A DNA stretch of 64,000 nucleotides from Longimicrobiales bacterium (GCA_965211795.1 OZ242973.1:2234088-2298087), one strand, 5' to 3'; shown: positions 9,700 to 51,444, counted from the first letter of the stretch. Program-made: numbers and translations. Notes: generated from the sequence alone by a model not told the origin.

Positions 9700-9740
9700 A
9701 TGTCAAGTGCGGTTTCCATTTTGACAACTGCGGTTTACAC
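9700..9740. promoter_or_regulatory. 41-bp quasi-palindromic AT-rich element, copy 1
   Basis: ATGTCAAGTGCGGTTTCCATTTTGACAACTGCGGTTTACAC. Sits 5 nt past the ANK-A stop and upstream of the ANK remnant. Confidence 0.55.
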
Positions 9741-9744
9741 ACGA

Positions 9745-13101: not shown

Positions 13102-16100
13102 TCAACGTTTCACCACTTCCAGCTCCTGCAGCGCCTTCTGTTCCCTGGCGTAGTCCATGGGGGTCTTGCCGTTCCCGTCGAGGGCCTCCGGATCGGCTCC
13201 CGCTTCCAGCAGGGCCAGGAACACGGCCGGATCCGCCCGAATGGCCGCTGCGTGGAGGGGCGTCATGTCGAGGCCGCCCGGGCGGGGCCAGCGATAGTAA
13301 ACCGCACGCGCGTCGATGGCCGCCCCTGCCTCCAGCAGCAGAGCGACGACTTCAGGTGTCGCAGCGTCATGCAGGGGAGTCGGGCCATCTTCCCTGTCTC
13401 GTGCGTGGACATTCGCACCCGCTGCCAGCAGCGCCGCTACCACGGCCGGGCGCCCGCCCATTACGGCCTCGTGCAAGGGCGTCAGACCGTCGTCGCCGTG
13501 GTAGCCCCTGCTGGTCCACGCGTTGAGTTCGGCGCCGGCTTCGACCAGCGCCACGATCATGGCCGGATCTTCGCTGCGCCACGCGGCCGAGTGCAACGGC
13601 GATCCGCCGGAGCCATCCCGGGCATTCACGTCCGCACCGGCCTGCACCAGGAGAGGGACGATCGCGGGATCCCGGGCCCAGGCGGACGCGAAGTGGAGGG
13701 GAGTCGAGCTACCGGGCTGACTCACGCCCCCTAACCGGTAGTCAAAGCTGGCGTTCACGTCGGCGCCACGCTCGATGCACCCGACAACCGTCTCGGTCGG
13801 GGCGAGGTGGAAGAAGGTGGCGGTGTTGAACCTGGCGCAGTTCACGGGGTTCGCCACATGCCCCGAATCATCCAGCGCGCTGGTGTCGGACCCGAGCTCG
13901 ATCAGCCTGGCCGCGACGCGCGGGTTGTCGGTCCGCAGTGCGTGGTGCAGCGCGGTTCGGCCCACGTCGTCCGTAGCGTGCAGGTCGGCCCCGGCCTCGA
14001 CAAGCAGAGAGACCAGGGAGTCGTTGTCGGGCCATGCCCGACCCGCAGCGACGTGTAGGGGGGTTGCGCCAAGGCTGTCGCGGGAGTTCACCTCGGCGCC
14101 CACGTTCAGAAGCGCCCGCGCGCCGCGAGGGCCACCCGATCGCCCCCCTCTTTCCGCCACATCGTGCAGGGGAGTCCTGCCCCTGCGATCCGGCGCGTTC
14201 ACGTCCGCACCGGCCTCGACAAAGCCGGCAACGACACGGTCGAAGGGGTAGTCGTCCCGTCCGGCGAGGGACACGAATCGGTACAGCGGTGTTTCGCCGT
14301 ACTGGTTGCGCGCATGCACGTCGGCACCGGCGCGCAGACACCCGATGACGCTCTCCCACGGGACGAGCGAGAAAAACAGCGTGTTCGTCCAGTCGCAGAC
14401 CATGGGCCGCGGGGTCCTGCCCAGATCGTCCACCGCAAGCGGGTCGGCCCCCAGCGCCAGGAGCTTGTCGACGACCGGCCGGTGACGGTTCCTGGTGGCC
14501 ACGTGCAGCGGTGTCTCGCCACGGTGGTTGCGGGCGTTGACATCCGCGCCGGCGGCGGCCAGAGCGGCGACCAGGAGCGTGTCGGCGGGGTCGGGTGGAT
14601 CGTCTCTTCGGCTGTACGACCCCGGCCACACCGCCGCGAGGTGCAGAGGTGTGTCACCGCCCTGCGTCTGGAGATGCACGTCCGCGCCCGCCTCCAGCAG
14701 GGCGGTCACGTTTGCGGGCTTCTTCGCCCCGACCGCCCGGTGGAGTGGTGTCGTGCCGCGGCTGTCCTGATCGTCCACCTCGGCCCCGGCCGCGACGAGA
14801 GCAGCGATCGCTCCGGGCCCACCGCCGCGGGCCGCCGCGTGAAGAGACGACCGGCCGGGAGCGGGGTTCGCATCCGCACCCGCCTCCAGCAGAACCGCGA
14901 CGATTTCGGGGTTGTCGCCCTGACGCGTGGCTGCGTCCAGAACGGGGAACAGTAGGTCCGGCGCATTGACGTCGGCACCGAGATCCAGGAGCCTTCGGAC
15001 CACATCGACGACCTTGTCGGTGCCATATCTGAGAACACTCAGCAGGACGTTTATCCCGTGCTCGTTCTGGTCGTTGACATCCGCGCCGGCCGCAACCAGA
15101 ATCTCGAGAATCTCCGGGGTTCCGAAACCGATGTCGGCCGCCCGGAGCAACGGTGAATTGCCGCTGCTGGTACGGGCGTGGATGTCCGCCCCTGCCTCGA
15201 GCAGCATGGCCACGGTCTCGAGGCCTTCCACCGCGGCCGCATGGTGCAGAGGGATGCTTCCCCCGTTATCGCGAGCGTTTGCATCCGCCCCCGCGGCCAG
15301 CAGTGCCGCCACGATGGGGGGATTCTCGACGAGGTCAGCCCTATTGGTCGCCACTTCCACGCGCTTGCCCCAGGCGGCGTTGTGCAGGGGAGTGCTTCGC
15401 ACGTCATTGCGGGCGTTCACCTCCGCGCCGGCTTCCAGCAACAGGGTCACGACTGCGGGGTCCTTGCTCGCAGGGGACTCATCGGCGCCACCCCCCAACA
15501 TTTCGGTAGCCCACAGCAGCGGTGTGTTCCCGTGCCTGTCGCGCGCGTTCACGTCCGCACCGGACGCCAGACAGGCAGCGGTGGCCTGGGCGGTTGCGAC
15601 GCGAGCGAACCACTGCGTGTTCCAATACCCACAGTCCAGCGGATCGGCGACCTCGCCCCGGTCGTTGACCAGGGTGGGGTCCGCCCCGAGTTCAAGCAGC
15701 AGGTAGACCACCTCGGCGTGTTCGTTGTGCCGGGAGGCATGCAAAGGGGTGTTGCCCGCGCTGTCCCGTGCGTTCAGATCCGCTCCGGCCCTTGCCAGTT
15801 CGGCAACGACCTGGCTCCGCTTTGATGCGGCGGCCCCATGCAGGGGCGTCCGGCCCCACCGGTTCCGCGCTTCGACATCCGCGCCGGCTTCGAGCAGCAC
15901 AACGAAGACCGCGGGCTCCCAGGCGTAGCGGGAAGCGAAGTGGAGTGGAGTGTTCCCGGCATCCGGGGAGTTGCGGTCGCGGTCGTTTCTCGCGTCGAGA
16001 TCCGCCCCGGCTTCCAGGCACGCCGCGACGGCCTCGGCAGTGGCTCGATAGAAGAAGTCGTGCGTGTTCCAGTCGTCGCAGTCCTCCTGGGCGGAGGCGG

Positions 16101-16155
16101 GCACGGCGACGAGGGCGAGTGCCACCGCTCCCGCCAACCGGGGGATTGTCTTCAT
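13102..16155 (-). CDS. Giant exported ankyrin-repeat protein, paralog B (1017 aa from M18)
   Basis: ORF 13102..16206 trimmed to MKTIPRLAGAVALALVAVPASA|QEDCDDW. The leader AATCGGTTGGAnnGAATG is shared with paralogs C and D. ANK repeats throughout. Confidence 0.88.
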   Translation of the reverse strand: MKTIPRLAGAVALALVAVPASAQEDCDDWNTHDFFYRATAEAVAACLEAGADLDARNDRDRNSPDAGNTPLHFASRYAWEPAVFVVLLEAGADVEARNRWGRTPLHGAAASKRSQVVAELARAGADLNARDSAGNTPLHASRHNEHAEVVYLLLELGADPTLVNDRGEVADPLDCGYWNTQWFARVATAQATAACLASGADVNARDRHGNTPLLWATEMLGGGADESPASKDPAVVTLLLEAGAEVNARNDVRSTPLHNAAWGKRVEVATNRADLVENPPIVAALLAAGADANARDNGGSIPLHHAAAVEGLETVAMLLEAGADIHARTSSGNSPLLRAADIGFGTPEILEILVAAGADVNDQNEHGINVLLSVLRYGTDKVVDVVRRLLDLGADVNAPDLLFPVLDAATRQGDNPEIVAVLLEAGADANPAPGRSSLHAAARGGGPGAIAALVAAGAEVDDQDSRGTTPLHRAVGAKKPANVTALLEAGADVHLQTQGGDTPLHLAAVWPGSYSRRDDPPDPADTLLVAALAAAGADVNARNHRGETPLHVATRNRHRPVVDKLLALGADPLAVDDLGRTPRPMVCDWTNTLFFSLVPWESVIGCLRAGADVHARNQYGETPLYRFVSLAGRDDYPFDRVVAGFVEAGADVNAPDRRGRTPLHDVAERGGRSGGPRGARALLNVGAEVNSRDSLGATPLHVAAGRAWPDNDSLVSLLVEAGADLHATDDVGRTALHHALRTDNPRVAARLIELGSDTSALDDSGHVANPVNCARFNTATFFHLAPTETVVGCIERGADVNASFDYRLGGVSQPGSSTPLHFASAWARDPAIVPLLVQAGADVNARDGSGGSPLHSAAWRSEDPAMIVALVEAGAELNAWTSRGYHGDDGLTPLHEAVMGGRPAVVAALLAAGANVHARDREDGPTPLHDAATPEVVALLLEAGAAIDARAVYYRWPRPGGLDMTPLHAAAIRADPAVFLALLEAGADPEALDGNGKTPMDYAREQKALQELEVVKR

Positions 16156-16214: not shown

Positions 16215-16255
16215 ATGTAAACCATAATTGTCAAAATGACAACTGTGATTGACAT
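16215..16255. promoter_or_regulatory. 41-bp quasi-palindromic AT-rich element, copy 2
   Basis: ATGTAAACCATAATTGTCAAAATGACAACTGTGATTGACAT. Lies 60 nt upstream of the ANK-B start. On the minus strand it reads TTGTCA-N17-TACATA. Confidence 0.6.
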
Positions 16256-16306: not shown

Positions 16307-19300
16307 TCAGTGCCCCGACCGCTTCACCACCTCAAGCTCCTGCAACGCCTCGTCCTCCCTGGCGTAGTCCATGGGAGTCTTGTCGGCCTGGTCGGCCGCG
16401 GTTGGATCGGCCCCCGCGTCCAGCAGCAGCAGGAACACCGCCGGATTCGCCCGCGCGGCCAGGTGCAGAGGTGTCTGCCTGTAGCGCAACCAACAGCAAC
16501 TGACGTAGGTCATCCCCCATGCATTGACGTCCGCGCCGGCCTCGACCAGCAGCCGGGCGACCGCCGGATTCCGGTTCCAACGTGCGGCCTTGTGCAACGG
16601 GGTCCCGACGACATCCTCGCTCTGCGCGTGGACGTTCGCTCCGGCTTCGAGCAGCGCGGCCGTCACGGCCGGGTTCTCATTGCTGCTCGCCGCGGCGTGC
16701 AGCGGGGTTCCGTGCCAGCTGTAATGGTAGGTGATGAAGTCGTCGGTCCACGCCTCGACATCGGCGCCGGCCTCGATGAGCGCCGTGGCCACCGCGGCGT
16801 TGCCGTTCGTCTCCGCGGCCCGGTGCAGTGGCGTGTACTGATCCTCGTCGCGCGCGTTCACATCGGCCCCGGCCCGCACCAGGAGCCCGACGACCTCGTG
16901 GTCGGGCGCCCAAGCGGCCGCGAAGTGCAGGGGTGTGGAGCCCGCCGCCAGACTCCCGTCCTCTTCGGAGCGGGCATTGACGTTCGCGCCTTCCTCGATG
17001 CAGGCGGCCACGACCTCGGTTGAAGCGACGCGGAAGAAGGAACCGGTGTTCCATCGCGCGCAAGCGGCGGGATCGGCCACGTGCCCGGAATCGTCCCGCG
17101 CGCCGGTGTCGGCCCCGAGTTCGAGCAGAGCGGCCACGCCGGCGGGTTTGTCGTGCTGTAGCGCCACATGCAGGGGAGTTCGGCCCTCGGAGTCGGTCGC
17201 GTGTACGTCCGCTCCGGCCCCAACCAGCAGGGCGATTGAGGCGAGTTTCTCCACGGCCCCGTGCAGAGGCGTGCGACCCCTGGCGTCCTGTGCGTTCACA
17301 TCCGCGCCGGCCTCGAGTAGTGCGGCCGCGACGACTGTCCTGTCGCGCGAGATGCCCATCGCCGCGTGCAGCGGGGCTCTCCCCCAATAGTCCCGCGCGT
17401 CCAGATCGGCGCCGGCTTCAACAAGTGCGGCGACGACCTTGGCGGCGGGGTAGTCATCCGGCAGGACCTCCGCGCCCGCCAGTCGGTGGAGAGGCGTCTC
17501 AAGGTCCTCGTCCCGGGCGTGCACGTCCGCTCCGGCCTCCAGACAGCCGAGCACGCCTTCCCAGGGGACCTGACGGAAGAAATAGGTGCGCATCCAGTCG
17601 CAGACCATGGGACGGGGCACCCGGCCCAGGTGATCCTCGGCGAGCGGGTCGGCCCCCAGCGCCAGCAGCTTGTCGGCGACCGGCGCGTGACGGTTTCGGG
17701 TGGCGGCGTGCAGCGGCGTCTCGCCGTACCGGTTGCGAGCGTTCACATCCGCACCCGAGGCGACCAGCGCGATGACCATGAGCGTGTCGGGCTCGGGTGG
17801 ATTGTCTCTTCGGCGAAACCGTTTCGGCGGCCACGCCGCCGCCATGTGCAGGGGCGTCTCGCCTTGCCGTACCCGTAGTCGCGCGTCCGCCCCCGCTTCC
17901 AGTAGCGCGGTGACGTTGGCGGGCTGTTTCGCCTCGATCGCCAGGTGTAGCGGCGTTCGACCGCTGCCGTCCTGCCCATCCACCTCCGCACCTCCCGCCA
18001 CCAGAGCGGCGATCGTCGAGGGGCTTCCGTCGTCGGCTGCCGCGTGCAGCGGTGATCTGCCGGACGGGGTCCGGTAGTTCGCGTCCGCGCCCGCCGCGAG
18101 GAGAACCGCAATGAGCCCGGGGACCTCCGGGAGACGCGCGGCTTCGTACAATGGAGGACCGAACACGGAGCTCTCCTCGCCGACATCCGCACCGAGTGCC
18201 AGGAGCCTGCGGACGATGTCGGTCACCTGTTGGCCCGGCAGCTCTTCGCTGATGATGGCATTCAGCACGACCCCCTCCCCACGCTTGTTGCGGTCGCGCA
18301 CGTCCGCTCCCGCCTCCAGCAGCGCCTCGAAAACCGCGGGGTTCCGGAAGCCCGCACGGAGCAATGGTGTGTTGCCCGCCCGGTCACGGGCGTGGACGTC
18401 CGCGCCAGCCTCCAGCAGCAGGGCCACGGTCTCGGGCGCGTCCAGCGCGGCAGCGCGGTGAAGCGGGGTCGTCTCCGGCCAGTAGCGCAGGATCAATTCG
18501 CTGTCCTCGCCGTCATCAAGTCGCGCATTCACATCCGCCCCGGCTTCGAGCAGCAGGGAGACGATGGGGGGAACTTCAGTTCGTAGGGGCCCGGCGGGCA
18601 TTACAACCTGCCTCCCTCCCACGGCATTGAAGAGCGGCGTGGCTCCGAGCGTGTTTCGGGCGTTCACCTCCGCTCCGGCCCCCAGCAGCAGGGCCACGAC
18701 CTCCGGCCCCTCACTGACGGGCGTGCCGACCGTCCCGCCAGCCTCGAACAGGGTGGCAAACAGGAGCGGCGTGTTGCCGTCGCCGTCGCGCGCGTTCACA
18801 TCCGCGCCCTCGCCGATGCAGGCGGTCCAATCCTCAAGAGTGGCGGTGCGCGCGAACACCTCCGTGTTCCAGCGGTCGCAACTCACCGGATCGGCAGCCT
18901 GGCCCAGCAGGTTGCGCACCGTGCGGTCGGCTCCCAGCTCCAGCAGCCGATAGGCGACCAGGGGATTCCGGTTGGACCAGGAGGAGTGCAGCGGTGTGTC
19001 GCCTGAATCGGCCTGTGCGTTGACTTCCGCCCCGGCTTCCACCAATTCCGTGACGACGCTCGGGTCCTGGCACCGTTCGGCAGCCACGTGAAGGGGGGTC
19101 AGGCCCTGCCAGTTACGGGCGTGGACATCCGCTCCGGCAGCCAGAAGCAGGCTGACCGTCCCGGGGTCGTCCCGGCAATACCGGGCCGCGAAGTGAAGGG
19201 GAGTTGTCCCGCCGCCGCGACCCAATACGGTTGATACGTATTCGGTGCGGGCATGCACGTCGGCCCCGGCCTCCAGGCACGCTGCCACGTCCTCCGAGGT

Positions 19301-19414
19301 CGCGTTGACGAAGAAGGTGGCCGTGTTCCAGTCGTCGCAGGATTGCTGCGCGGCAGAGGGGTGGGCGAAGAGCACGAGCGCGAGCGCTCCCGTGAACCGT
19401 GGGATCATCTGCAT
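16307..19414 (-). CDS. Giant exported ankyrin-repeat protein, paralog C (1035 aa from M44)
   Basis: ORF 16307..19543 (GTG start) runs through the 41-bp element. Trimmed to MQMIPRFTGALALVLFAHPSAA|QQSCDDW. ANK repeats throughout. Confidence 0.88.
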   Translation of the reverse strand: MQMIPRFTGALALVLFAHPSAAQQSCDDWNTATFFVNATSEDVAACLEAGADVHARTEYVSTVLGRGGGTTPLHFAARYCRDDPGTVSLLLAAGADVHARNWQGLTPLHVAAERCQDPSVVTELVEAGAEVNAQADSGDTPLHSSWSNRNPLVAYRLLELGADRTVRNLLGQAADPVSCDRWNTEVFARTATLEDWTACIGEGADVNARDGDGNTPLLFATLFEAGGTVGTPVSEGPEVVALLLGAGAEVNARNTLGATPLFNAVGGRQVVMPAGPLRTEVPPIVSLLLEAGADVNARLDDGEDSELILRYWPETTPLHRAAALDAPETVALLLEAGADVHARDRAGNTPLLRAGFRNPAVFEALLEAGADVRDRNKRGEGVVLNAIISEELPGQQVTDIVRRLLALGADVGEESSVFGPPLYEAARLPEVPGLIAVLLAAGADANYRTPSGRSPLHAAADDGSPSTIAALVAGGAEVDGQDGSGRTPLHLAIEAKQPANVTALLEAGADARLRVRQGETPLHMAAAWPPKRFRRRDNPPEPDTLMVIALVASGADVNARNRYGETPLHAATRNRHAPVADKLLALGADPLAEDHLGRVPRPMVCDWMRTYFFRQVPWEGVLGCLEAGADVHARDEDLETPLHRLAGAEVLPDDYPAAKVVAALVEAGADLDARDYWGRAPLHAAMGISRDRTVVAAALLEAGADVNAQDARGRTPLHGAVEKLASIALLVGAGADVHATDSEGRTPLHVALQHDKPAGVAALLELGADTGARDDSGHVADPAACARWNTGSFFRVASTEVVAACIEEGANVNARSEEDGSLAAGSTPLHFAAAWAPDHEVVGLLVRAGADVNARDEDQYTPLHRAAETNGNAAVATALIEAGADVEAWTDDFITYHYSWHGTPLHAAASSNENPAVTAALLEAGANVHAQSEDVVGTPLHKAARWNRNPAVARLLVEAGADVNAWGMTYVSCCWLRYRQTPLHLAARANPAVFLLLLDAGADPTAADQADKTPMDYAREDEALQELEVVKRSGH

Positions 19415-19475: not shown

Positions 19476-19516
19476 ATGTAAACCGGCGTTGACCATTTGA
19501 CAACTGGAATTGACAT
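19476..19516. promoter_or_regulatory. 41-bp quasi-palindromic AT-rich element, copy 3
   Basis: ATGTAAACCGGCGTTGACCATTTGACAACTGGAATTGACAT. About 62 nt upstream of the ANK-C start. Coordinates are +/-1 nt. Confidence 0.6.
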
Positions 19517-19546: not shown

Positions 19547-22500
19547 TCAATGCCCCGACCGCTTCACCACCTCCAGCCCCTGCAGCGCCTTCTCCTCCCT
19601 GGCGTAGTCCATGGGGGTATTGCCGAACTCGTCGACCGCAGCCGGATCGGCGCCCGCGTCGAGCAGGAGCAGGAACACCGCCGGATTCGCCTGCGCGGCC
19701 AGGTGCAGAGGTGTCTGCCTGTAGCGCGACCAGCAGCAACTGACGTAGGTCATCCCCCAGGCATTGACGTCCGCCCCGGCCTCGACCAGCAACCGGACAA
19801 CCTCCGGATTCCGGTTCCGAAGCGCGGCCTTGTGCAACGGGGTCCCGACGACATCCTCGCTGTGCGCGTGGACGTTCGCTCCGGCTTCGAGCAGCGCGGC
19901 CGTCACGGCCGGGTTTTGATTGCTGCCCGCCGCGGCGTGCAGGGGCGTTCCGTGCCAGCTGTAGTGGTAGCTGATGAAGTCGTCGGTCCACGCCTCGACA
20001 TCGGCGCCCGCGTCGACGAGCGCCGTGGTCACCGCGGCGTTCTCGTTCATCCTCGTGGCCCGGTGCAGCGGCGTGTAGTGATCCTCGTCGCGGGCGTTCA
20101 CGCCGGCCCCGGCCCGCACCAGGAGTCCGACGACCTCGTGGCCGGGCGCCCAGGCGGCCGCGAAGTGCAGGGGTGTGGAACCCGCCGCCAGGCTCCCGTC
20201 CTCTTCGGAGCGGGCATTGACGTTCGCGCCTTCCCCGATGCAGGCGGCCACGACCTCGGTTGAAGCGACGCGGAAGAAGGAAGCGGTGTTCCATCGCGCG
20301 CAGGCTGCGGGATCGGCCACGTTCCCGGAATCGTCCTGCGCGCCGGTGTCGGCCCCGAGTTCGATCAGCCTGGCCGCAACGCGCGGGTTGTCGGTCCGCA
20401 AGGCAATGTGCAACGCGGTGCGGCCCCCGTCATCGGTGGCGTCAGGGTCGGCCCCGGCTGCGGCCAACAGGGAGACGATGGCGGCCTTGTTGCGCCGTCC
20501 CAATCCCGCTGCAATGTGGAGGGGGGTTGAGCCCCGGTTGTCACGGGCGTTCGCGGCGGCGCCCGAGGCAAGGAGTGACGCAACCTCTTCGGTGGCGACA
20601 TCGGCAGAACGTTCCGCTGCGTAGTACAGCGGAGTCCTGCCCCTGCGATCTCGTGCGTTCAAATCCGCACCGGCCTCGACAAAGGCAGCGATGACCCGGG
20701 CGACGGGGTAGTCGTCCGGCTTGCCACGGGTGGCCCACCGGTGCAGCGGCGACTCGCCGTCCCGATTGCGGACGTGCACATCCGCCCCGGCGCGCAGACA
20801 ACCGATGATGCTCTCCCACGGGGCCGTCACGAAATCGAATCTCATCCAGTCGCAAATCATGGGGCGCGGGGCTCTGCCCAGGTCGTCGACCGCCAGGGGG
20901 TCGGCCCCCAGTGCCACAAGTCTGTCGACAACCGGCTCGTGACGGTTTCTCTTGGCTACGTGCAGCGGTGTCTCGCCGCGGTCGTTGCGGGCATCGATGT
21001 CAGCGCCGGCGGCGGCCAGGGCGATGACGATGAGAGTGTCGGGTTCGCGCGGATGGTCTCTTCGGCCAACCGACCTGGGCGGCCAGACCGCCGCCAGGTG
21101 CAGGGGCGTGTGCCCGTCCCATGTGCGGGCGTGTACGTCCGCGCCCGCCGCGATCAGCGCGGTGACGTTGGCGGGCATCTTCGCCTCGACCGCCCGGAGG
21201 AGCGGTGTCATGCCGCGGTTGTCGTGTGCGTCCACCACGGCCCCGCCCGCCACCAGAGTGGCTATCACTTCGGGTCCACCGCCGTAAGCCGCCGCGTGAA
21301 GAGGCGATTGGAGCAAGTAGCCGGAGGGGGCGTTCGCGTCGGCACCCGCAGCCAGCAGGACCGCGATGAGTTCGGCGTTGTCGCCCTGTCGAGCAGCCAC
21401 CTCCAGAATGTCAGGCGCATTGGCATCCGCACCGAGATCCAGGAGTCTTCGTACGACATCGCTGACCCTGTCGGCGGGGGACCTTACGGCGTACTCCAGG
21501 ACGGTTCCCCCCCTATCGTTACGATCGTTGACATTCGCGCCGGCCTCGACCAGGGCCTCGAGGACTTGCGGGTTTCGGAAGCCTCCGTATTCGGCCGCCA
21601 CCAGTAGCGGAGTTCTGTCTTCCCTGTCGCGGGCGTGGATGTCCGCCCCTGCCTCGAGCAGCAACCTCACCGACTCGAGGTCCTCCGCAGCGGCCACCTG
21701 GTGCAGGGCCGTCGTGTGGGAGCGCGCGTTCACGTCCGCCCCCGCGGCCAGCAGCGCAGCCACGATGCCAGGGTCCTCGGCGAGATCGAACATCCCGCCT
21801 CGCGTTATTTCCACGAGCGCCCCGGCCGCATTGATCAGGGCGGTGTTCCCCGGGTTGTCGCGAGCGTTCACATCCGCGCCGGCTTCCAGCAGGACATTCA
21901 CGACCGCGGGATCCTCGCTGGCCGGGGCTCCCGGGGTGCTCCCCCCCGGGGCCGAGGTGGCAAACAGGAGTGGAGTCACTCCGTTGTCGTCCCGCGCGTT
22001 GACGTCCGCCCCGGCTTCCAGGCAGGCGGTGGTGGCCCGGGCGGTTGCGACGCGGGCGAACGTCTCGGTGTTCCAGTAGCCGCAGTCCATGGGATCGGCG
22101 ACCTGGCCCTCGTCGTTGACCAGGGTGGGGTCGGCGCCCAGTTCCAGCAGCAGATGCGTCACGCGCGGATTCCCGAAAGGCCGGACAGCATGGAGGGGGG
22201 TGTTCCCTTCACCATCTTGCGCGTTCAGGTCCGCCCCCGCTCTTGCCAGCTCCGCAACAACGGCCGGGCTGGAGTTGATTCGCGCCGCCCTGTGCAGGGG
22301 CGTCGCGTTGCGCTGGTTCCGCGCGCCAACATCCGCTCCGGCCGCGAGAAGCACCGTGATCACCGCGAGGTCCCGCGAGGAGCCGGATGCGAAATGCAGG
22401 GGAGTGTTTCCGTCCTCGGCTCTCGCGTCGATATCCGCCCCGGCCTCGAGGCAGGCCGTCACGGTCTCGGCGGTGGCATCGACGAAGAACCTGCTGGTGT

Positions 22501-22588
22501 TCCAGTCGTCGCAGCCTTCCTGCGCGGACGCGGGGAGGGCGGAGAGGGCAAGTGTCAAGGTTGCTGCCAACCGGGCCATCATCTTCAT
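19547..22588 (-). CDS. Giant exported ankyrin-repeat protein, paralog D (1013 aa from M4)
   Basis: The track ORF starts at a TTG (22597). The conserved leader GGTTGGAGCGA-ATG points to MKMMARLAATLTLALSALPASA|QEGCDDW. ANK repeats throughout. Confidence 0.88.
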   Translation of the reverse strand: MKMMARLAATLTLALSALPASAQEGCDDWNTSRFFVDATAETVTACLEAGADIDARAEDGNTPLHFASGSSRDLAVITVLLAAGADVGARNQRNATPLHRAARINSSPAVVAELARAGADLNAQDGEGNTPLHAVRPFGNPRVTHLLLELGADPTLVNDEGQVADPMDCGYWNTETFARVATARATTACLEAGADVNARDDNGVTPLLFATSAPGGSTPGAPASEDPAVVNVLLEAGADVNARDNPGNTALINAAGALVEITRGGMFDLAEDPGIVAALLAAGADVNARSHTTALHQVAAAEDLESVRLLLEAGADIHARDREDRTPLLVAAEYGGFRNPQVLEALVEAGANVNDRNDRGGTVLEYAVRSPADRVSDVVRRLLDLGADANAPDILEVAARQGDNAELIAVLLAAGADANAPSGYLLQSPLHAAAYGGGPEVIATLVAGGAVVDAHDNRGMTPLLRAVEAKMPANVTALIAAGADVHARTWDGHTPLHLAAVWPPRSVGRRDHPREPDTLIVIALAAAGADIDARNDRGETPLHVAKRNRHEPVVDRLVALGADPLAVDDLGRAPRPMICDWMRFDFVTAPWESIIGCLRAGADVHVRNRDGESPLHRWATRGKPDDYPVARVIAAFVEAGADLNARDRRGRTPLYYAAERSADVATEEVASLLASGAAANARDNRGSTPLHIAAGLGRRNKAAIVSLLAAAGADPDATDDGGRTALHIALRTDNPRVAARLIELGADTGAQDDSGNVADPAACARWNTASFFRVASTEVVAACIGEGANVNARSEEDGSLAAGSTPLHFAAAWAPGHEVVGLLVRAGAGVNARDEDHYTPLHRATRMNENAAVTTALVDAGADVEAWTDDFISYHYSWHGTPLHAAAGSNQNPAVTAALLEAGANVHAHSEDVVGTPLHKAALRNRNPEVVRLLVEAGADVNAWGMTYVSCCWSRYRQTPLHLAAQANPAVFLLLLDAGADPAAVDEFGNTPMDYAREEKALQGLEVVKRSGH

Positions 22589-22650
22589 TCGCTCCAACCG
22601 ATTACCGAGGGACCTGACCGTGCCGTGTCCCGTCCGGCTTCAAACCAAAA

Positions 22651-23937: not shown

Positions 23938-23976
23938 GTCAATCATGGTTTCCATTGTGACAACTGCCGTTGACAT
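23936..23976. promoter_or_regulatory. 41-bp quasi-palindromic AT-rich element, copy 4
   Basis: ATGTCAATCATGGTTTCCATTGTGACAACTGCCGTTGACAT, at the 5' end of propeller paralog 1. Confidence 0.55.
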
Positions 23977-24247: not shown

Positions 24248-24637
24248 TCAGGGCAGATCCCGCAGCGGGATTCCGAGCGCGCGGGCGGCCCTCACCATTC
24301 GACGATCGTAGCTGGCGATTTCAAGGCGCTGGCCCCGGTCCCGGAGAAACTGGCATGACGCGAGGTGCAGCGCGTCGAGCGTGCGCACGGATACCGGAAA
24401 CGGATCGAGGGCGCGGGCCAATACGACGGGTGCCAGCTCGAGCAAAGAGATGCGGGCGATCACTGCCTGCGCGGCCTCCGCGCGCGACGCCGTCGCCTCT
24501 CGCGCGTGCATGCGCGTCCAGATCTCGTACTCCAGCAGACGGCTCGAAACGAGGGTTTCGGTCCACAACGAAGCCGGGGGTCGCCGGTCTTCCGCGAACA
24601 AGTGGGCCAGGGCGACCGAGGTGTCGACGTAGATCAC
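24248..24637 (-). CDS. vapC: PIN-domain toxin (VapC-type)
   Basis: 129 aa. MIYVDTSV (Asp5), EYEIW, TLDALHLAS acidic residues in the PIN pattern. ATGA overlap with the upstream antitoxin. Confidence 0.8.
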   Translation of the reverse strand: MIYVDTSVALAHLFAEDRRPPASLWTETLVSSRLLEYEIWTRMHAREATASRAEAAQAVIARISLLELAPVVLARALDPFPVSVRTLDALHLASCQFLRDRGQRLEIASYDRRMVRAARALGIPLRDLP

Positions 24638-24927
24638 CGGTCGCGTCGGTCGCCCTCCAGTTCACTGAGCAACACGGACAGCGCGGCCTCCGGAGGCCCG
24701 CCACGGGGGGGCTCGGATCCCGGAGAGAGCGCGGGCGTCAACCAACCCTTCCGCACCGCATCGGCAAGCATGGCGTCCGCCAGGATGGGACTCCTTGTCT
24801 CTCGCGGAGGGCCGATTTCGGCTACGACGCGGCCCCGGTCCGTGACGAGAACGGTCTCGCCACCGGCCGCCAGCCGCACGTATTCGCTGAGCCTGCTGTT
24901 CAATGCCTTGATTCCGACGGATCGCAT
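24634..24927 (-). CDS. vapB: Phd/YefM-type antitoxin partner of VapC
   Basis: ORF 24634..24963 trimmed to M13. MRSVGIKALNSRLSEYVRLAAGGETVLVTDRGRVVAEIGPP is a typical prevent-host-death N-terminus. Confidence 0.7.
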   Translation of the reverse strand: MRSVGIKALNSRLSEYVRLAAGGETVLVTDRGRVVAEIGPPRETRSPILADAMLADAVRKGWLTPALSPGSEPPRGGPPEAALSVLLSELEGDRRDR

Positions 24928-25110
24928 GGAGGTAACGTAGCTACTTGTAGCTCCCTCGGTCAATCCTTGGGACGCGCGACCCGTGCTTGGCTTCCTCTGC
25001 CCTGGCTCTTTCCGCCGTTCAGTAGCGCCATGAGTCGCACGAGGTTGCCGTCCCGCACGGGATCGCCTCCCACCCTTCCCCGGCTGACAACCGGCTCCAA
25101 GTGCGAGGAA

Positions 25111-41030: not shown

Positions 41031-41053
41031 AATAGCTTACATTTTTCCCACAA

Positions 41054-41137
<84 letters not shown>

Positions 41138-41239
41138 TATTCCCGGTAAGATCGCCCCACTGCCAATCCCCTTCAAGGCGACTTACGCACGACTTCACGC
41201 CCCTCGCTGACCCCAGCACGCTTATCTTGGACGAAAAAA

Positions 41240-41274
41240 AGTAAACTACAGATTCCATTTTATAATGTTTACAT
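41240..41274. promoter_or_regulatory. Degenerate, shortened relative of the 41-bp element
   Basis: AGTAAACTACAGATTCCATTTTATAATGTTTACAT shares the GTAAAC...TTCCATTTT...TTTACA(T/C) blocks with copy 1. About 100 nt upstream of tRNA-Ser. Confidence 0.3.
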
Positions 41275-41338
41275 TACATTCTGGTCTGCTGATCGTCCCG
41301 ATTCATTGCTACCCGAATCCAGCCACCCCCCACCCCCC

Positions 41339-45385: not shown

Positions 45386-46794
45386 TCCGCCTCCCCGCCG
45401 GCCTCCTCCAGCGAGCCGAGCGCCCCTACCACCGCCGCCTCCTCCCCCGGCGAGATCGTGCGCAGATCAAGCAGCATGCGCCCCTGCCGGCTGCGCGCAA
45501 TCACCGGCGGGTCATGGGCGCGCAGCGCGGCCATCCATCGCTCGGCGGCGTCCCCGGCGTCGATTTCGAGCACCGCCGTCTCCAGTCGCGCGTCGGGGAA
45601 GGTCCCCCCGCCCACCACCGACCGCCCCCGCGACACCTCGGCCGCCAGCGGTGGCGCTCCACGTTCCGCCCTCAGCGCGGCCACCCTCTCCAGCAGCGCC
45701 CTCGCCCGGCCCCCCACTTCCTCCACCGGCGCGGCGATCATGCGCAGCACCGGAATCCGCCTCATCGCCCGGCCGTGGTCCCGGTACAGCGCCAGCGTCG
45801 CCTCAAGTCCGGCCAGCGTGACCTTGTCGCAGCGAAGGGCCCGGCACAGCGGGTGCGCCTTCGCCCGGGCCACACCGGCGCTCGTCCCGGCCAGGATTCC
45901 CGCCTGCGGCCCGCCGAGCAGCTTGTCCCCCGAGAAGGCGACCAGATCGATCCCGGCGGCGACGCTCATGGCGGGCGTGGGCTCGTCGGGCAACCCCAGT
46001 TCGGCGCTGTCGACCAGCAGTCCCGATCCCAGGTCGTGGATGACGGGAACGCCGGTCTCGGCTCCGAGCGCGACCAGTTCGTCGAGCCCGGTCTCCTCGG
46101 TGAACCCGGTCATCGAGAAGTTCGAGCGGTGCACCTTGAGGATCGCGCCCACCCCCCCGCTCGTGATGGCGCGTGCATAGTCGGCGAGGCGCGTGCGGTT
46201 GGTCGTCCCGACGGTGACCAGACGCGCCCCCGCCGCCTCCACCACCTCCGGAATCCTGAAGCCGCCGCCGATCTCGACGAGCTCGCCGTGCGACACCGCG
46301 ACCCCCTTCCCCGAGGCGAACGCCGTCAGCGCCAGCGCCACCGCCCCCGCGCAGTTGTTGACCACCAGGGCGGCCTCGGCGACGGTCAGCTCCCGCACCA
46401 GGTCGGTACAGTGCACGTAGCGCGAACCGCGGTCGCCGGTGTCCAGGTCGAACTCGAGGTTGCCGTACCCGGCCGCGCGGGCCATCGCCTCGCGCGCTTC
46501 GGCGGCCAGGGGGGCGCGGCCCAGGTTGGTGTGCAGGATCACGCCGGTGGCGTTGACCGCGGGGAGGAGCGAGGGGGTTTCGGCGGCCGCGATCTCGCGT
46601 CTCAGAAGCTCCGCGTAACCGTCATCGGATGCAGGCAGCGGCAGGCGGCCCGCGCGGACCTCGTCCAGTAGGGTGCGAAGACGGGAGGTCACCCAGTCGC
46701 GGCCATGCGATTCGGCAAGCACGCGGCACCAGGGACGGGTCAGGAGGCGATCGACGCCCGGGATCGCGCGGCGGTGATCACGGTGGGCGGGCAT
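45382..46794 (-). CDS. selA: L-seryl-tRNA(Sec) selenium transferase
   Basis: 470 aa. NATGVILHTNLGRAPL, NNCAGAVALAL, ELVEIGGGFRIPEV, KVHRSNF, PLP-lysine motif FSGDKLLGGPQAG. Confidence 0.88.
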   Translation of the reverse strand: MPAHRDHRRAIPGVDRLLTRPWCRVLAESHGRDWVTSRLRTLLDEVRAGRLPLPASDDGYAELLRREIAAAETPSLLPAVNATGVILHTNLGRAPLAAEAREAMARAAGYGNLEFDLDTGDRGSRYVHCTDLVRELTVAEAALVVNNCAGAVALALTAFASGKGVAVSHGELVEIGGGFRIPEVVEAAGARLVTVGTTNRTRLADYARAITSGGVGAILKVHRSNFSMTGFTEETGLDELVALGAETGVPVIHDLGSGLLVDSAELGLPDEPTPAMSVAAGIDLVAFSGDKLLGGPQAGILAGTSAGVARAKAHPLCRALRCDKVTLAGLEATLALYRDHGRAMRRIPVLRMIAAPVEEVGGRARALLERVAALRAERGAPPLAAEVSRGRSVVGGGTFPDARLETAVLEIDAGDAAERWMAALRAHDPPVIARSRQGRMLLDLRTISPGEEAAVVGALGSLEEAGGEAE

Positions 46795-48712
46795 GGAAGG
46801 TCAGGGGGTGGGGGCTGGGGTGGGGGCGGGGCGAGTGGGCGGTGGGAGACCGGTGGGTCGGTGCGGGTTGGGGTGGGCCGGGTGAGGGTCGGCGTTGGGG
46901 GGGAGGAAGGAGGGGTCGGTGGGCGCGACGGTGGCGGATGGGGGCGGTGGGGCGGGGCGGGCCGGGGGTGCTCCGGCTTGGCGCGGGTGCCGTGGCCGTT
47001 GCGGGGCTGGGGTGCGCGGCGTGGTCGCCGGTGGCGCGGTGCGCGACCCGGTTGGTGTCCGGGGGTGTGGTGGTATCGGGCGGGGTGAGAGTATCGGGCG
47101 GCGTCAGGGTATCGGGCGGTGTGACAGTGTCGGGCTGCACCGCAGTCGTGTCATCCACCGCGACCGTGTCATCCACCGTCACCGTGTCGTCCACCGGTAC
47201 ACTGTCACCCACTTCCGTCTCCTCCTCTTCCTCCGGCGGCGGCTCCCAGGTCAGCGTGTCCACACCGCCCCCCCCATCAGCCCCTGCAATGTTCGCGACT
47301 CCCTCGACCACCAGTTCATACGGAATGTGGGGCACAAGTGCCTCATCCAGCACTCCCATGAGCGCGCGCGCCGGGAGCCTGAGCCCCGAGAGCGTCGTTA
47401 CAATCGTCGGCGCGTCGGCACTGTCCGGATCTTCCGCCGGAACGTCTCCGGTTTCGGACACCGGATCGCCCGGCGGCGCCTCCTGTTCGGCCGGCTGCTC
47501 CACTTCGGCGGCTGGCTCCCCGGGCGCGGCCGAGTCGCCCATCTCCGCGGCCTGCGCCTCCTCTTCCCGCGCGATCGAGTCCGCCCGCGCTATCGAGTCT
47601 TCACGAAGAGCAAGCCACACCCGGTACTCGTGCTGCTGGAAGATTCGAATGCGCACCGTCCGGCCCGGTTCGGGCAGCGGCACCGGCTCCTCCTCGGCAG
47701 TCCCGGCTTCCTGTCCGGCCGCCGAGTCAACCACTTGCACGACCTCACCCGGGTCCTCCACGACTTCCACAACCTCGCCTGCACCCACCGTGTCCCCAGT
47801 CACCTCGCCCTCCCCCTCCCCAGCCCCCGTACCCTGCGCCGCAGCCACCACCGAGTCGTCGTATTCGGCCACCGTGAGCGTCCCCCGGATCGTCGCCACG
47901 GGGATCGCCGGCTCGATGTAGTCGTCGAACTCGATCTCCAGCGTGACCGAGTCCTCGATGTTGATCCGGGTCAGCCGCGGCGCGGTCGTGTCGGGCTGGA
48001 TCAGGGTGAGTATCTCGAGGGTGGTGTCGGGCGGCTCGGGCAGGTCGCAGGGGATGAACGACGTCTGCGGTTCGCTCTCGTCCACCTCCCCGTTCCGGTT
48101 CTGGTCCTGCCAGGCACGCAGTTCACAGGGGCCCGCGGGCGTGTAGCGCAGCGAGAAGACACCGCCGGTGTCGGCGAAGTTCCAGTGCGTCAGGGTGTCT
48201 TCCGCGTATGGAAACCGCGCTTCAACGCGCGCCGAGGGTGTCGCATCGCCCGTCACCCGGTCCTCCACCATCCCCGCCACGACGTTCGGAACGATCTCCG
48301 CCCCGGTGGACACGACCAGGTCGAAGGGGTCCCGCAGGCTGTTGCTGAACATGTCCCTGATGACCGGGAGCACCGTAATCCTGTAGACGAGGTCCGGCGC
48401 CAGCCCCTCCTCCATCTCGACGGTGATGCACTCCCGGCCGTGCTTCACCCGGATCTCCCCGGTGGCGGGAGACACCACGACGGCATCGTTCAGCCGTCCG
48501 TCCGCGGGCCGCTCGCTGATCCGTTCGCTGAAACAGAACCGCAGCTCCCGGAGTCCTGGCTCGACGATTGCGAAGGTATCGGGCACCGTCTCGATCACGT
48601 ACGGCGGGAAGCGGTCCTCCGGCCCGCCGCTCGGGGCGTCGGCCCGCGCGCAGGCCTCTGCCGCGACGAGCAGGGCTAATCCCGCGAATGTCGCTCCCGC
48701 CAAGCGTCTCAC
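46778..48712 (-). CDS. Ig-like (SbsA/Big_5-type) domain lipoprotein with acidic and D/T/P-repeat, Pro-rich C-terminal tail
   Basis: 644 aa. GTG start overlaps the valS stop by 1 nt. MRRLAGATFAGLALLVAAEAC lipobox-like. DRFPPYVIETVPD...RFCFSERI. Tail repeats VDDTVTVDDTVAVDDT and PPDTLTPPDTLTPPDT. Confidence 0.55.
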   Translation of the reverse strand: MRRLAGATFAGLALLVAAEACARADAPSGGPEDRFPPYVIETVPDTFAIVEPGLRELRFCFSERISERPADGRLNDAVVVSPATGEIRVKHGRECITVEMEEGLAPDLVYRITVLPVIRDMFSNSLRDPFDLVVSTGAEIVPNVVAGMVEDRVTGDATPSARVEARFPYAEDTLTHWNFADTGGVFSLRYTPAGPCELRAWQDQNRNGEVDESEPQTSFIPCDLPEPPDTTLEILTLIQPDTTAPRLTRINIEDSVTLEIEFDDYIEPAIPVATIRGTLTVAEYDDSVVAAAQGTGAGEGEGEVTGDTVGAGEVVEVVEDPGEVVQVVDSAAGQEAGTAEEEPVPLPEPGRTVRIRIFQQHEYRVWLALREDSIARADSIAREEEAQAAEMGDSAAPGEPAAEVEQPAEQEAPPGDPVSETGDVPAEDPDSADAPTIVTTLSGLRLPARALMGVLDEALVPHIPYELVVEGVANIAGADGGGGVDTLTWEPPPEEEEETEVGDSVPVDDTVTVDDTVAVDDTTAVQPDTVTPPDTLTPPDTLTPPDTTTPPDTNRVAHRATGDHAAHPSPATATAPAPSRSTPGPPRPTAPIRHRRAHRPLLPPPQRRPSPGPPQPAPTHRSPTAHSPRPHPSPHPLTFHARPP

Positions 48713-51444
48713 TACCCGTCTCCCCCCAACGATGTCAACTTCTCATTCCATTTAGTCAACTGTAGTTGACATGATGCCAGCTTTTCGCGCTCTCGGTCCA
48801 CGACGGCCGCAGGTGCCCGGGTCACGAAGTTGTGGTTGGCCAGCTTGGCTTCCATCCCCTTGAGCAGACCTTCGAGACGACCGATTTCACGCGCCGCCCG
48901 CGCCCGTTCGCGGCCCAGGTCGATGACGCCCTCCAGGGGCAGAAACAGCTCGGTTCCGTCGCGCAGGACGCCGCTGGCACCGGCGGTCCCGGAGGGCGGC
49001 GGCGCGGTCTCCACGGACCCGATGCGCGCGAGGCGCCGGAGCATTTCGCCGCGGCCTTCGAGCCGGCCATCGTGGTCGCTTCCGGCCAGGTGCAGCGAGA
49101 TCTCACGTCCCTCGCCCACGCCATACTCCTTGCGCATGCCGCGCACCCGCACGACCAGCTCGCGCAGCCACTCGAAGGCTTCCTCGCTCCCGGGATCGAT
49201 CAGCTCGGCGTCGGCAGCGGGCCAGCGCGCGACGATCAGCGGACCGCTGCGTTCTCCGGTCGCGGGCAGCAGACCCCACAGCTCCTCGGTGACGAAGGGG
49301 ACCATGGGGTGGAGGAGACGGCAGGCCCGGTCCAGCACATGGGCCAGAACCGAGCGCGCGGCCTCGCGTCCGGGGCCGCCGGGACGCAGCCGGTGCTTGA
49401 CCGACTCGAGGTACCAGTCGGTGAACTCGCCGCGGAAGAAGTCGCGCAGCACCTCGGCGACGCCCTGCATGCGGAAGGCCTCCAACTCCTCGTCGACGCG
49501 CCGTATGGCGTACTGCTGGCGGGACAGGATCCACCTGTCTTCCAGCCTCAGGTCGCCCTTCACCTCGGAGAGCGGCCGAATCGGGTCGTCTCCCAGGCTC
49601 ATGAGCGCGAAGCGGCCCGCGTTCCACAGCTTGTTGACGAAGTTGCGGCCGGGCGCGAAGGCCGATTCCAGATCTTCGTGGTCGAGCCGGATATCGGCGC
49701 CCACGCCCGCGCTCGCCAGCACGGTGAAGCGGAGCGCGTCGGCCCCGTAGAGCTCGACCACCTCGAGCGGGTCGACCCCGTTGCCGAGCGACTTGGACAT
49801 CTTGCGGCCCTGGATGTCGCGCACGGTGCCGTGCAGGTAGACGCGCGTGAAGGGCGTGTCGCCCATGGCCTGGTAGCCGGCCATGATCATGCGCGCCACC
49901 CAGAAGAAGAGGATCTCGGGCGCGGTCGAGAGGGTGTGTCCCGGGTAGAAGGCCCTGAGATCGTCGGTCTCTTCCGGCCAGCCGAAGACCGAGAACGGCC
50001 ACAGCCACGACGAGAACCAGGTGTCGAGCACGTCGGGGTCCTGCTCCAGCGCCGATCCACCGCATTCGGCGCACGCCGACGGATCCTCGCGCGCACAGAT
50101 CTCCGCACCGCAGTCGCCGCAGTACCATACCGGTATGCGGTGGCCCCACCACAGCTGCCGCGAGATGCACCAGTCGCGGATGTTCTCCATCCACTGCTCG
50201 TAGACGCGCGTCCAGCGGCCCGGGGCGAAGGTGACGGTGCCGTCGCGCGAGGCCGCCAGCGCCGGTTCGGCCAGCGGCTTCATGCGCACGAACCACTGTT
50301 CGCTCAGCCTCGGCTCGACCACCGTGTCGCAGCGGTAGCAGCGGGGGATGGCGTGGAGGTGGGCGTCGCGGCCCGCGAGGAGTCCCTCCTCTTCGAGCGC
50401 GGCCACGACCGCGCGGCGCGCGTCGAAGCGGTCCAGGTCGCGGAAGGCCTCGGGCGCGTTCTCGTTCATCACCGCGCGCTCGGTCATGACGTTGAGGACT
50501 TCGAGGCCGGTGCGCGCCGCGATCTCGAAGTCGTTGGGGTCGTGGGCAGGCGTCACCTTGACCATCCCGGTCCCGAACTCGGCGCTCACATGCCGGTCGG
50601 CGACGATGGGGATGGTGCGTCCCGTCAGCGGCAGGTGGACGGTCGCGCCGACAAGGGAGCCGTAACGGGGGTCGCCCGGGTTCACGGCCACCCCGGTGTC
50701 GCCCAGCATGGTCTCGGGCCGGGTGGTGGACACGGTCAGGTGCCAGCGTCCATCGGGAAGACGATCCACCGCGGTGGCGCCCGCTTCCCGGGCCGCCGCG
50801 GCCGCCTCTTCATGCCCGGCCGCCAACGGATAGCGGATGTGCCAGAGCGACCCCTCGGCCTCGGAACCCTCGGCCTCCTCGTTCGAGAGCGCCGTCAGGC
50901 AGCGCGGACACCAGTTGATGATGTACTCGCCGCGATAGATCAGATCCCGTTCATGGAGCCTTACGAAGATCTCACGCACCGCCCGGGACAGGCCCTCGTC
51001 GAGGGTGAACCGGGTGCGCGTCCAGTCACAACTGCAACCGATCGCCTTCAGCTGGTCCAGGATCCGGTCCCCGGTCACCTCCACATGTTCCCACACGCGC
51101 TCCACGAACGCTTCGCGGCCCAGGTCGTGGCGCGTCTTCCCTTCAGCGGCCAGCCGCCGCTCGACGACGTTCTGGGTCGCGATCCCGGCGTGGTCGGTGC
51201 CGGGAACCCAGAGCGCGACGCGCCCCTGCATGCGGCGCCAGCGAATGAGCACGTCCTGAATGGTGTTGTTGAGACCGTGACCCATGTGCAGCACGGAAGT
51301 CACGTTGGGAGGCGGGATTACGATCACGTACGGATGGCCGCCCCCCGTGACGTCGCCCGCGGACGCGCCGAAATGGCCGCCCTCCTCCCACATGCGCAGG
51401 ATGCGCGCTTCGACCGCGGCCGGGTCGAAGGTCTTGGGTAACAC
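48712..51444 (-). CDS. valS: Valine--tRNA ligase
   Basis: ORF 48712..51765 trimmed to the GTG at 51444, giving (M)LPKTFDPAAVEARILRMWEE, the canonical ValRS N-terminus. That start lies 14 nt after the upstream gene stop. HMGH-type motif VLHMGHGLN and KMSKS motif GRKMSKSLGN are present. Confidence 0.92.
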   Translation of the reverse strand: MLPKTFDPAAVEARILRMWEEGGHFGASAGDVTGGGHPYVIVIPPPNVTSVLHMGHGLNNTIQDVLIRWRRMQGRVALWVPGTDHAGIATQNVVERRLAAEGKTRHDLGREAFVERVWEHVEVTGDRILDQLKAIGCSCDWTRTRFTLDEGLSRAVREIFVRLHERDLIYRGEYIINWCPRCLTALSNEEAEGSEAEGSLWHIRYPLAAGHEEAAAAAREAGATAVDRLPDGRWHLTVSTTRPETMLGDTGVAVNPGDPRYGSLVGATVHLPLTGRTIPIVADRHVSAEFGTGMVKVTPAHDPNDFEIAARTGLEVLNVMTERAVMNENAPEAFRDLDRFDARRAVVAALEEEGLLAGRDAHLHAIPRCYRCDTVVEPRLSEQWFVRMKPLAEPALAASRDGTVTFAPGRWTRVYEQWMENIRDWCISRQLWWGHRIPVWYCGDCGAEICAREDPSACAECGGSALEQDPDVLDTWFSSWLWPFSVFGWPEETDDLRAFYPGHTLSTAPEILFFWVARMIMAGYQAMGDTPFTRVYLHGTVRDIQGRKMSKSLGNGVDPLEVVELYGADALRFTVLASAGVGADIRLDHEDLESAFAPGRNFVNKLWNAGRFALMSLGDDPIRPLSEVKGDLRLEDRWILSRQQYAIRRVDEELEAFRMQGVAEVLRDFFRGEFTDWYLESVKHRLRPGGPGREAARSVLAHVLDRACRLLHPMVPFVTEELWGLLPATGERSGPLIVARWPAADAELIDPGSEEAFEWLRELVVRVRGMRKEYGVGEGREISLHLAGSDHDGRLEGRGEMLRRLARIGSVETAPPPSGTAGASGVLRDGTELFLPLEGVIDLGRERARAAREIGRLEGLLKGMEAKLANHNFVTRAPAAVVDREREKLASCQLQLTKWNEKLTSLGGDG
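48732..48772. promoter_or_regulatory. 41-bp quasi-palindromic AT-rich element, copy 6 (inside the valS 3' coding end)
   Basis: ATGTCAACTTCTCATTCCATTTAGTCAACTGTAGTTGACAT. Lies 20 nt upstream of the GTG start at 48712. In valS it encodes SCQLQLTKWNEKLTS. Confidence 0.55.

Follow-up and report, generated by a model that had tools for sequence, protein, structure and literature searches.

In Enterococcus faecalis, CylR2 binds and represses the cyl promoter, and the membrane protein CylR1 is needed for induction (PMC3709268). This plasmid-borne promoter carries the sequence TTGTCAAGTGTCACTTGACAA directly upstream of the cylR1 Shine-Dalgarno sequence; on the other strand, the TTGACA of this sequence and a TAATAT hexamer upstream of cylL-L are 17 nucleotides (nt) apart. 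Here, we describe a 41-bp element that recurs in a 64-kb stretch of DNA from a Longimicrobiales bacterium (GCA_965211795.1, OZ242973.1:2234088-2298087; the window, below), where its copies stand upstream of genes for ankyrin-repeat (ANK) proteins, lipoproteins, and others. Its half-sites are identical to the half-sites TGTCAA and TTGACA of IR1, the CylR2 operator of E. faecalis. We favour, with a probability of about 0.6, the reading that the element combines a bipartite repressor operator with a promoter of its own, which would define a regulon rich in exported eukaryote-like proteins.

The likeness to the cyl system extends beyond the half-sites. The cylR1-cylR2 pair has the same gene order as the modules that we found beside the element in other bacteria, with a small membrane protein followed by a helix-turn-helix (HTH) protein of ~66 amino acids (aa). 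In addition, the regulators encoded beside the 41-mer match CylR2 (PDB 1UTX) with E = 2e-10 to 2e-8; they also match 9k3w, an unnamed 65-aa structure labelled "PbsX family". The cyl site lies just upstream of the operon start codon, and one of its half-sites can double as a TTGACA promoter hexamer, as in the 41-mer. While the cyl system concerns one divergent toxin operon, the element described here precedes many unrelated genes without an adjacent regulator gene.

Other systems share parts of this geometry. For the XRE protein GakR of the garvicin KS system, two 20-bp inverted repeats lie upstream of gakABC; as here, the repeats are adjacent, with centres 22 bp (about two helical turns) apart, and they overlap predicted promoter elements, but GakR is reported as an activator of one bacteriocin operon (bioRxiv 10.64898/2026.09.04.749385). 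We liken the two by geometry, not by sequence. The ARG boxes bound by ArgR are two 18-bp palindromes, separated by 2-3 bp, that overlap the promoters of a dispersed regulon, which is the geometry found here (18 + 3 + 18). ArgR was nevertheless rejected as a candidate: the ARG-box consensus TNTGAATWWWWATTCANW is unlike TGTMAA-N6-TTKACA, no arginine genes occur among the targets, and the linked regulators are XRE/HTH_3 proteins. Lambda/434-type Cro and CI are HTH_3-fold dimers that bind adjacent palindromic operators overlapping promoter hexamers and repress cooperatively. In contrast to those operators, the sites here are chromosomal rather than prophage-linked, have another sequence and a fixed 21-bp spacing, and belong with a regulator family that is paired with a membrane protein. 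Further candidates were set aside as well. TnrA/GlnR boxes (TGTNA-N7-TNACA) are one base shorter; the sequence or spacing of BirA bioO, CRP/FNR-type, Rex, LexA, NrdR, and parS sites does not fit, nor does that of integron attC or Xer/dif-like core sites; and for the "AAC" -35 motifs of extracytoplasmic function (ECF) sigma factors there is no conserved -10 downstream. A literature search returned nothing on Gemmatimonadota promoters or on the 41-bp motif described here.

Architecture of the 41-bp element

An original prediction, made from the window sequence, had listed six exact 41-bp copies, all of which are present as written (copies 1 to 6 in Table 1). Read in the direction of the genes, on the minus strand, their consensus is ATGTMAAnnnCAGTTGWCAnnATGGAAAnnnnnGTTKACAT. 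The degenerate pattern TGTMAAN4AGTTGWCN16TTKACAT, built from these copies, has six matches in the window, which are the six copies, all on the minus strand, against a shuffled expectation of 0.00. Each element consists of two 18-bp palindromes, TGTMAA-N6-TTKACA, with exactly 21 bp from the start of one to the start of the other. The half-unit TGTMAAN6TTKWCA, with one mismatch or fewer allowed, has 22 matches, all within elements, where 0.07 are expected. When the whole window was scanned with a matrix for the 20-mer unit, sites scored at least 16.7 bits and background at most 3.7 bits. The scan returned seven pairs, each at the exact 21-bp spacing, no single (unpaired) units, and no element at most of the window's genes. 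The element is two palindromes rather than one long quasi-palindrome. In copy 2, the inner half-sites also form a perfect palindrome, TTGTCA-N4-TGACAA.

The seventh pair corrects the original prediction, which had described a shortened relative at 41240-41274. It is a full, degenerate 41-bp copy (copy 7), with units that score 23.7 and 16.7 bits, and related loci retain it upstream of tRNA-Ser. The same prediction had called the copies the most AT-rich spots in the window, which has a G+C content of 68%. Elements do account for 7 of the 11 most AT-rich 41-bp windows, but they share that rank with spots at 30559, 33414, 40720, and 42258.

Regulator-linked and dispersed copies

A strict form of the pattern, scanned over 185,579 species genomes, yielded 95 loci. 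Conservation across these loci extends to positions that the pattern did not constrain, notably the third half-site (positions 23-28), so the two-unit architecture is real across all 95. Outside Gemmatimonadota, 35 of 44 pattern matches have a gene for an XRE protein of 65-76 aa within ~0.7 kb. They come from Chloroflexia, Bacillus/Neobacillus, Flavobacteriia, Pirellulales, Thermoanaerobaculia, Bacteriovoracales, Cloacimonadota, Actinomycetes, and Proteobacteria. At all 35, the 41-mer adjoins a two-gene module that encodes a multi-pass membrane protein of 110-180 aa (usually 145-160 aa, and ahead of the XRE gene) and an HTH_3 (XRE) protein of 65-76 aa, and in most of them it precedes the start codon of the first module gene by 7-56 nt. 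The membrane protein of the module matched no Pfam family. At least nine phyla have this arrangement of cassette and module. When metagenomes were scanned with an independent, less biased pattern, at least 120 loci were obtained; 68 of the 120 listed carry an XRE gene on the same, mostly short contig. The CylR2 family, with an adjacent 41-mer, is found in Gemmatimonadota too (P0227): in a Gemmatimonadaceae contig (GCA_039927215.1, locus L218, 3030-3709), a membrane-protein and XRE gene pair preceded by ATGTAAAGGACTCTTGACATAGAGACAAGTATCCTTTACAC is inserted between sufS and nifU, within the suf gene cluster for iron-sulfur cluster assembly. Around P0299, on a 2.57-Mb contig of 70% GC, the module has a different, degenerate operator.

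A second class of copies is dispersed. About 51 such loci come from ~27 Gemmatimonadota/Longimicrobiales assemblies, many of them sponge metagenome-assembled genomes (SB06xx, RHO1/RHO3, COS4, bin94), and the sites are kept at orthologous loci across these assemblies. Over 397 kb of Gemmatimonadota loci, we counted 64 pairs at exactly 21 bp and ~3 singles. Sites are few per genome and are tied to particular gene families rather than spread along the chromosome; in complete genomes, those at the valS, propeller, and ANK genes cluster within ~30 kb, as in the window. What is conserved is narrow. Base counts show no conservation outside the 41 bp, and within it the spacer bases vary freely between copies while the half-sites are shared. 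Likewise, in aligned paralogous or orthologous ANK intergenic regions, the invariant columns in or near the element are confined to the element, and almost all of them are half-site positions.

The dispersed copies are positioned and oriented with respect to genes. The genes on either side run in the same direction at 36 sites, converge at 7, and diverge at 1. Among sites at which a facing gene could be identified, the element, read in its asymmetric form, agrees in direction with that gene in 28 cases and opposes it in 5. Most targets have their start codon 1-74 nt downstream. In the window, the distances to the ANK-B and ANK-C starts are 59-62 nt, as had been predicted. The claim that the copies are a shared cis-regulatory cassette is supported: their occurrence is not due to chance, and they are directional with respect to the downstream gene. 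At the Ig-like lipoprotein gene after valS, 18 related loci have copy 6 in the equivalent position, and so does L097; this 93.6%-identical contig, which comes from a different sample, holds both the tRNA-Ser copy and the valS copy. Other targets in relatives include ANK proteins, the propeller lipoprotein, a class IV aminotransferase, fhs, a substrate-binding protein, a protease-like protein, and an HD-domain protein. The original prediction had proposed a regulon of exported proteins. Identifiable targets are indeed mostly exported proteins or lipoproteins (signal-peptide ANK, NHL/propeller-family, and Ig-like proteins, a substrate-binding protein, and proteases), but the regulon is not purely of this kind, with tRNA-Ser, a Phd/PIN pair, the class IV aminotransferase, fhs, the HD-domain protein, and a site inside smc among its members.

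Some copies are written into coding sequence. The 41-mer lies in frame within valS and within three smc genes, always in the same frame, with TGT read as Cys. The smc peptides are CKAELTS-CKAELTS in L091 and L043 and CKAELTL-CNSDLTS in L073; the valS peptide is CQLQLTK-WNEKLT, in the context ...EKLAS CQLQLTKWNEKLT SLGGDG*. Both locations are coiled-coil segments, in which 21 bp corresponds to one heptad. Third-position G+C in valS is 6/13 inside the motif, compared with 0.845 for the whole gene, and because AT-rich codons are retained against the local codon bias, it is the DNA sequence, not the peptide, that is kept. Copy 6 had been described as a site 20 nt upstream of the Ig-like lipoprotein gene; it lies 19 nt upstream of the GTG start, though not in an intergenic gap but inside the last valS codons. 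The GTG and the valS stop codon share one base.

In many phyla, the cassette thus lies immediately before the operon of the regulator itself, as with Enterococcus cylR1-cylR2; in this sponge-associated Longimicrobiales-like lineage of Gemmatimonadota, it stands before many transcription units. The original prediction had recognised no known regulator in the element. Its half-sites and architecture are those of CylR2-family XRE operators, and in this sense the type of site itself is of a known kind, as the operator of an XRE/CylR2-family regulator. What is new is that the two-site 41-bp form is conserved across phyla, that in sponge-associated Gemmatimonadota it has been dispersed into a regulon, that it is linked to ankyrin and other eukaryote-like genes, and that some copies are in frame in coding sequence; a literature search found no description of the two-site form, the dispersal, the ankyrin link, or the coding copies.

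Interpretation and rival readings

In the mechanism that we propose, a small XRE/HTH_3 repressor of the CylR2 family would occupy, as a dimer, each of the two 18-bp palindromes, whose centres are separated by 21 bp (about two helical turns). We infer that a protein of this family binds the dispersed Gemmatimonadota copies and that binding represses. The element most likely carries its own promoter: it is often the sole AT-rich sequence between packed GC-rich genes, and its direction is that of the downstream gene. As the promoter, the best candidate would be an extended -10-like stretch, TGnCAWWAT, at positions 15-23 (A19 in 48, A22 in 40, and T23 in 52 of 62 sites; these bases overlap or adjoin the half-sites), with a start near position 30, which fits the distances to the start codons. 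Two bound dimers could then occlude RNA polymerase, and a signal relayed through the membrane partner would lift repression.

This candidate is an alternative to the sigma70-like geometry of the original prediction, TTGWCA-N17-KACATN, which is a weak reading. A -35-like TTGWCA does occur at element positions 14-19 in all window copies except copy 7. KACATN, the proposed -10, has no conserved T at position 6, and the start that it implies would fall downstream of the lipoprotein Shine-Dalgarno sequence.

Several findings weigh against the operator reading. A search of the window, of ~400 kb around the 64 dispersed sites, and of L097 found no CylR2-family gene (hidden Markov model of 34 XRE proteins, six-frame, E up to 1-10), and tblastn of six XRE proteins against the window and against all loci found no regulator near the dispersed Gemmatimonadota sites. 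Regulators of the family normally adjoin their own operator. In database searches with at least 8000 matches each, there are members named Gemmatimonadaceae or Gemmatimonadales and, among the matches listed, none attributable to Longimicrobiales. The sites themselves also differ. The cyl site is a single 21-bp palindrome with N7 between the hexamers, whereas here there are two palindromes, 21 bp apart, with N6, a spacing that holds in the window copies and in all regulator-linked 41-mers. Moreover, when flank bases were compared between metagenome loci L098-L217 and Gemmatimonadota loci, regulator-linked copies were mostly TGTAAAG...CTTGACA (AAG/CTT by the hexamers) and dispersed Gemmatimonadota copies TGTMAAC...GTTKACA (AAC/GTT), which is possibly a difference in specificity between regulator subfamilies. 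The promoter component has its own difficulties: a consensus scan for a canonical sigma-70 promoter calls none of the elements, and the extended -10 is not independent evidence, because its positions are already constrained by the half-sites. Finally, seven sites between convergent genes and three deep in smc have no evident downstream gene start, and a search for tRNA genes as hidden targets at the convergent sites found none. These sites leave room for a roadblock or insulator-type role.

In such a role, the element would be the site of another DNA-binding protein, structural or insulating (a roadblock, an insulator, or a nucleoid or chromosome-organising factor), rather than a classical promoter operator. 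Copies 4-80 nt after the stop codon of an upstream gene would suit it, as would those between convergent genes (L027, L037, L047, L071, L077, and window copy 1), those in smc and valS, and the lack of a cognate XRE gene near any dispersed site. We nonetheless consider it rather unlikely, given the orientation with the downstream gene, the short and consistent distances to start codons, the identical architecture before CylR2-family operons in many phyla, and the small number of sites linked to particular gene families. Fourfold half-site symmetry and strict 21-bp pairing are foreign to promoters, and the cassette is kept beside an XRE gene in phyla with very different promoter consensus (Flavobacteriia, Bacillus, Chloroflexia). 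These features, along with the negative consensus scan and the many window genes that lack the element, make it distinctly unlikely that we are looking at a self-sufficient promoter for a housekeeping or lineage-specific sigma factor, with incidental palindromes and no repressor, even though the element is directional, is often the only AT-rich stretch in its intergenic gap, contains TTGWCA and a TGnCAWWAT-like stretch, and is found upstream of a tRNA gene and housekeeping genes.

It is most improbable that the element is a small mobile or passively duplicated repeat without regulatory function, comparable to miniature inverted-repeat transposable elements (MITE) or repetitive extragenic palindromes (REP). 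The original prediction had offered a mobile or duplicated module as an alternative, and one part of it stands: the ANK-B and ANK-C elements (copies 2 and 3) lie inside a duplicated ANK unit, whose flanks align on both sides and in which the half-sites alone are invariant. Terminal inverted repeats (ATGTCAA...TTGACAT) and the copies inside coding sequence are also what one might expect of a mobile repeat. As a general account it fails, since sharing half-sites with free spacers is the opposite of what young mobile copies would show, orthologous positions are conserved in ~27 assemblies, coding copies are in frame with AT-rich codons kept against codon bias, and base counts outside the 41 bp reveal neither flank conservation nor a target-site duplication. 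A role in RNA or single-stranded DNA, as a terminator, processing site, or translational element, is scarcely probable. Each unit could fold into a short hairpin, and copies occur at gene ends and near start codons. However, complementarity of the arms shows no excess over the base-frequency expectation, there is no covariation between M5 and K37 or between positions 26 and 37, and the arms mismatch in several window copies (TGTAAA versus TTGTCA, for example), so an RNA or cruciform role is disfavoured. A terminator scan called none at the elements, with one weak, chance-level match upstream of copy 5 whose T-tail reaches the element's first bases, and the sole Rfam match in the search was tRNA.

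If the operator reading holds, it carries implications for the biology of these bacteria. Sponge symbionts are noted for their large repertoires of eukaryote-like proteins, ankyrin proteins among them; how these genes are controlled in such uncultured organisms is, to our knowledge, not known. With the 41-bp cassette as a guide, a regulon should be recognisable from genome sequence alone; the cassette also predicts a regulator family to be sought and transcription starts that can be checked in sponge metatranscriptomes. By it, the little-studied CylR1/CylR2-type module can be recognised, through a two-site operator, in nine or more phyla. It suggests that a CylR2-type operator can be recruited to many genes, and it shows that a 21-bp-periodic DNA site can hide in heptad-repeat (coiled-coil) coding sequence. 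More tentatively, in sponge-associated Longimicrobiales, a CylR1/CylR2-type pair (a membrane sensor and a small repressor) might have risen from a local, autoregulated module to become a global switch over the exported eukaryote-like repertoire (ankyrin, NHL-propeller, and Ig-like proteins), answering an external, possibly host-derived signal. Should this doubtful but possible scenario be true, operators before each unit, even in valS and smc codons, would co-ordinate a repertoire thought to mediate life inside a host.

Neighbouring genes and other AT-rich elements

Five ankyrin-repeat genes, encoding proteins of 1000-1136 aa, lie on the minus strand of the window, and clear signal peptides are present in three of the proteins. 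Nearby are a Phd/PIN toxin-antitoxin pair, two NHL/propeller-family lipoprotein genes, tRNA-Ser, pur genes, selA, the Ig-like lipoprotein gene, and valS, and a giant LRR/Ig protein is encoded on the plus strand. The coordinates of the elements and their neighbours are collected in Table 1.

Table 1. Copies of the 41-bp element and associated genes. Positions refer to the window unless a locus is named.
Feature	Position	Strand	Remarks
Element copy 1	9700..9740	-	4 nt after ANK-A stop codon; upstream of decayed ANK remnant
Element copy 2	16215..16255	-	59 nt upstream of ANK-B ATG
Element copy 3	19476..19516	-	61 nt upstream of ANK-C ATG
Element copy 4	23936..23976	-	Upstream of propeller-family lipoprotein gene, then ANK-D
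Element copy 5	25111..25151	-	147 nt upstream of Phd/YefM-type antitoxin gene; 32 nt after ANK-E stop codon
Element copy 7	41239..41279	-	~101 nt upstream of tRNA-Ser(tga); conserved in L013, L041, L097
Element copy 6	48732..48772	-	In frame in valS 3' end (peptide CQLQLTKWNEKLT); 19 nt upstream of lipoprotein GTG
smc copies	L091 5014-5054; L043 1795-1835; L073 593-633		In frame within smc
ANK-B, signal-peptide ankyrin-repeat protein	13102..16155	-	Downstream of copy 2
ANK-C, signal-peptide ankyrin-repeat protein	16307..19414	-	Downstream of copy 3
ANK-D	19547..22597	-	Without its own element
Propeller-family lipoprotein	22651..23910	-	First gene downstream of copy 4; start codon uncertain
Phd/YefM-type antitoxin (24634-24963) and PIN toxin (24248-24637)	24248..24963	-	Downstream of copy 5
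tRNA-Ser(tga)	41054..41137	-	Downstream of copy 7
Ig-like (Big_5) lipoprotein	46778..48712	-	Downstream of copy 6
valS	48712..51765	-	C-terminal coiled-coil codons carry copy 6

The ANK remnant that had been predicted downstream of copy 1 is there. The first codons of this decayed gene (9399-9698) resemble the signal peptide of the propeller lipoprotein (MNLRIPDVTIVLAS), and they are followed, in a different frame, by an ANK repeat fragment with stop codons. Copy 1 has either outlived its gene or marks a recent rearrangement. The propeller lipoprotein itself, in the frame 22651-24036, has the lipobox LLLLLSLAC and is a distant relative of the NHL/6-bladed propeller protein encoded at 30611-32065 (E = 4e-10). 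An open reading frame at 22640-23935 was rejected as the propeller gene; it is in the wrong frame, Arg-rich, and without homologues, and it overlaps the real frame. ANK-D is probably co-transcribed with the propeller gene.

Comparison of L097 (10264-16657) with the window (~38281-41050) revealed that, beyond tRNA-Ser, a prophage-like block (portal, TerL nuclease) replaces the hybrid kinase gene. Because of this block, the tRNA-Ser gene is suggested to be an integration site.

In L064 and L065, the stretch that separates the 41-mer from a divergent ATPase-like gene holds a second AT-rich block, ~60-130 nt upstream of the element, in which palindromes are repeated (CACCTAAATTTAGGT, TAATTTTAGGTCAACACCTAA); this block is conserved in two Longimicrobiales genomes. 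In the window, the spot at 30559-30600 (AATTGAATTCAGAGATATCTAAAATATATCTTTCC) is directly upstream of a MazE/AbrB-type antitoxin gene (30301-30552) and has an inverted repeat of its own, GATATCT..ATATATC, which is unrelated to the 41-mer. Finally, another element of ~70 bp, ACTGTGTG..GRTAGTGATTTAT..ACGNGATTTCRCCC, occurs at 33400-33470 on the plus strand and at 40690-40770 on the minus strand, where it precedes the giant LRR/Ig protein gene (33551, plus strand) and a hybrid histidine kinase/response regulator gene (40635, minus strand), respectively. Within it, the exact 11-mer TAGTGATTTAT is found only at these two places, and the ~70-bp element is possibly another shared regulatory site.

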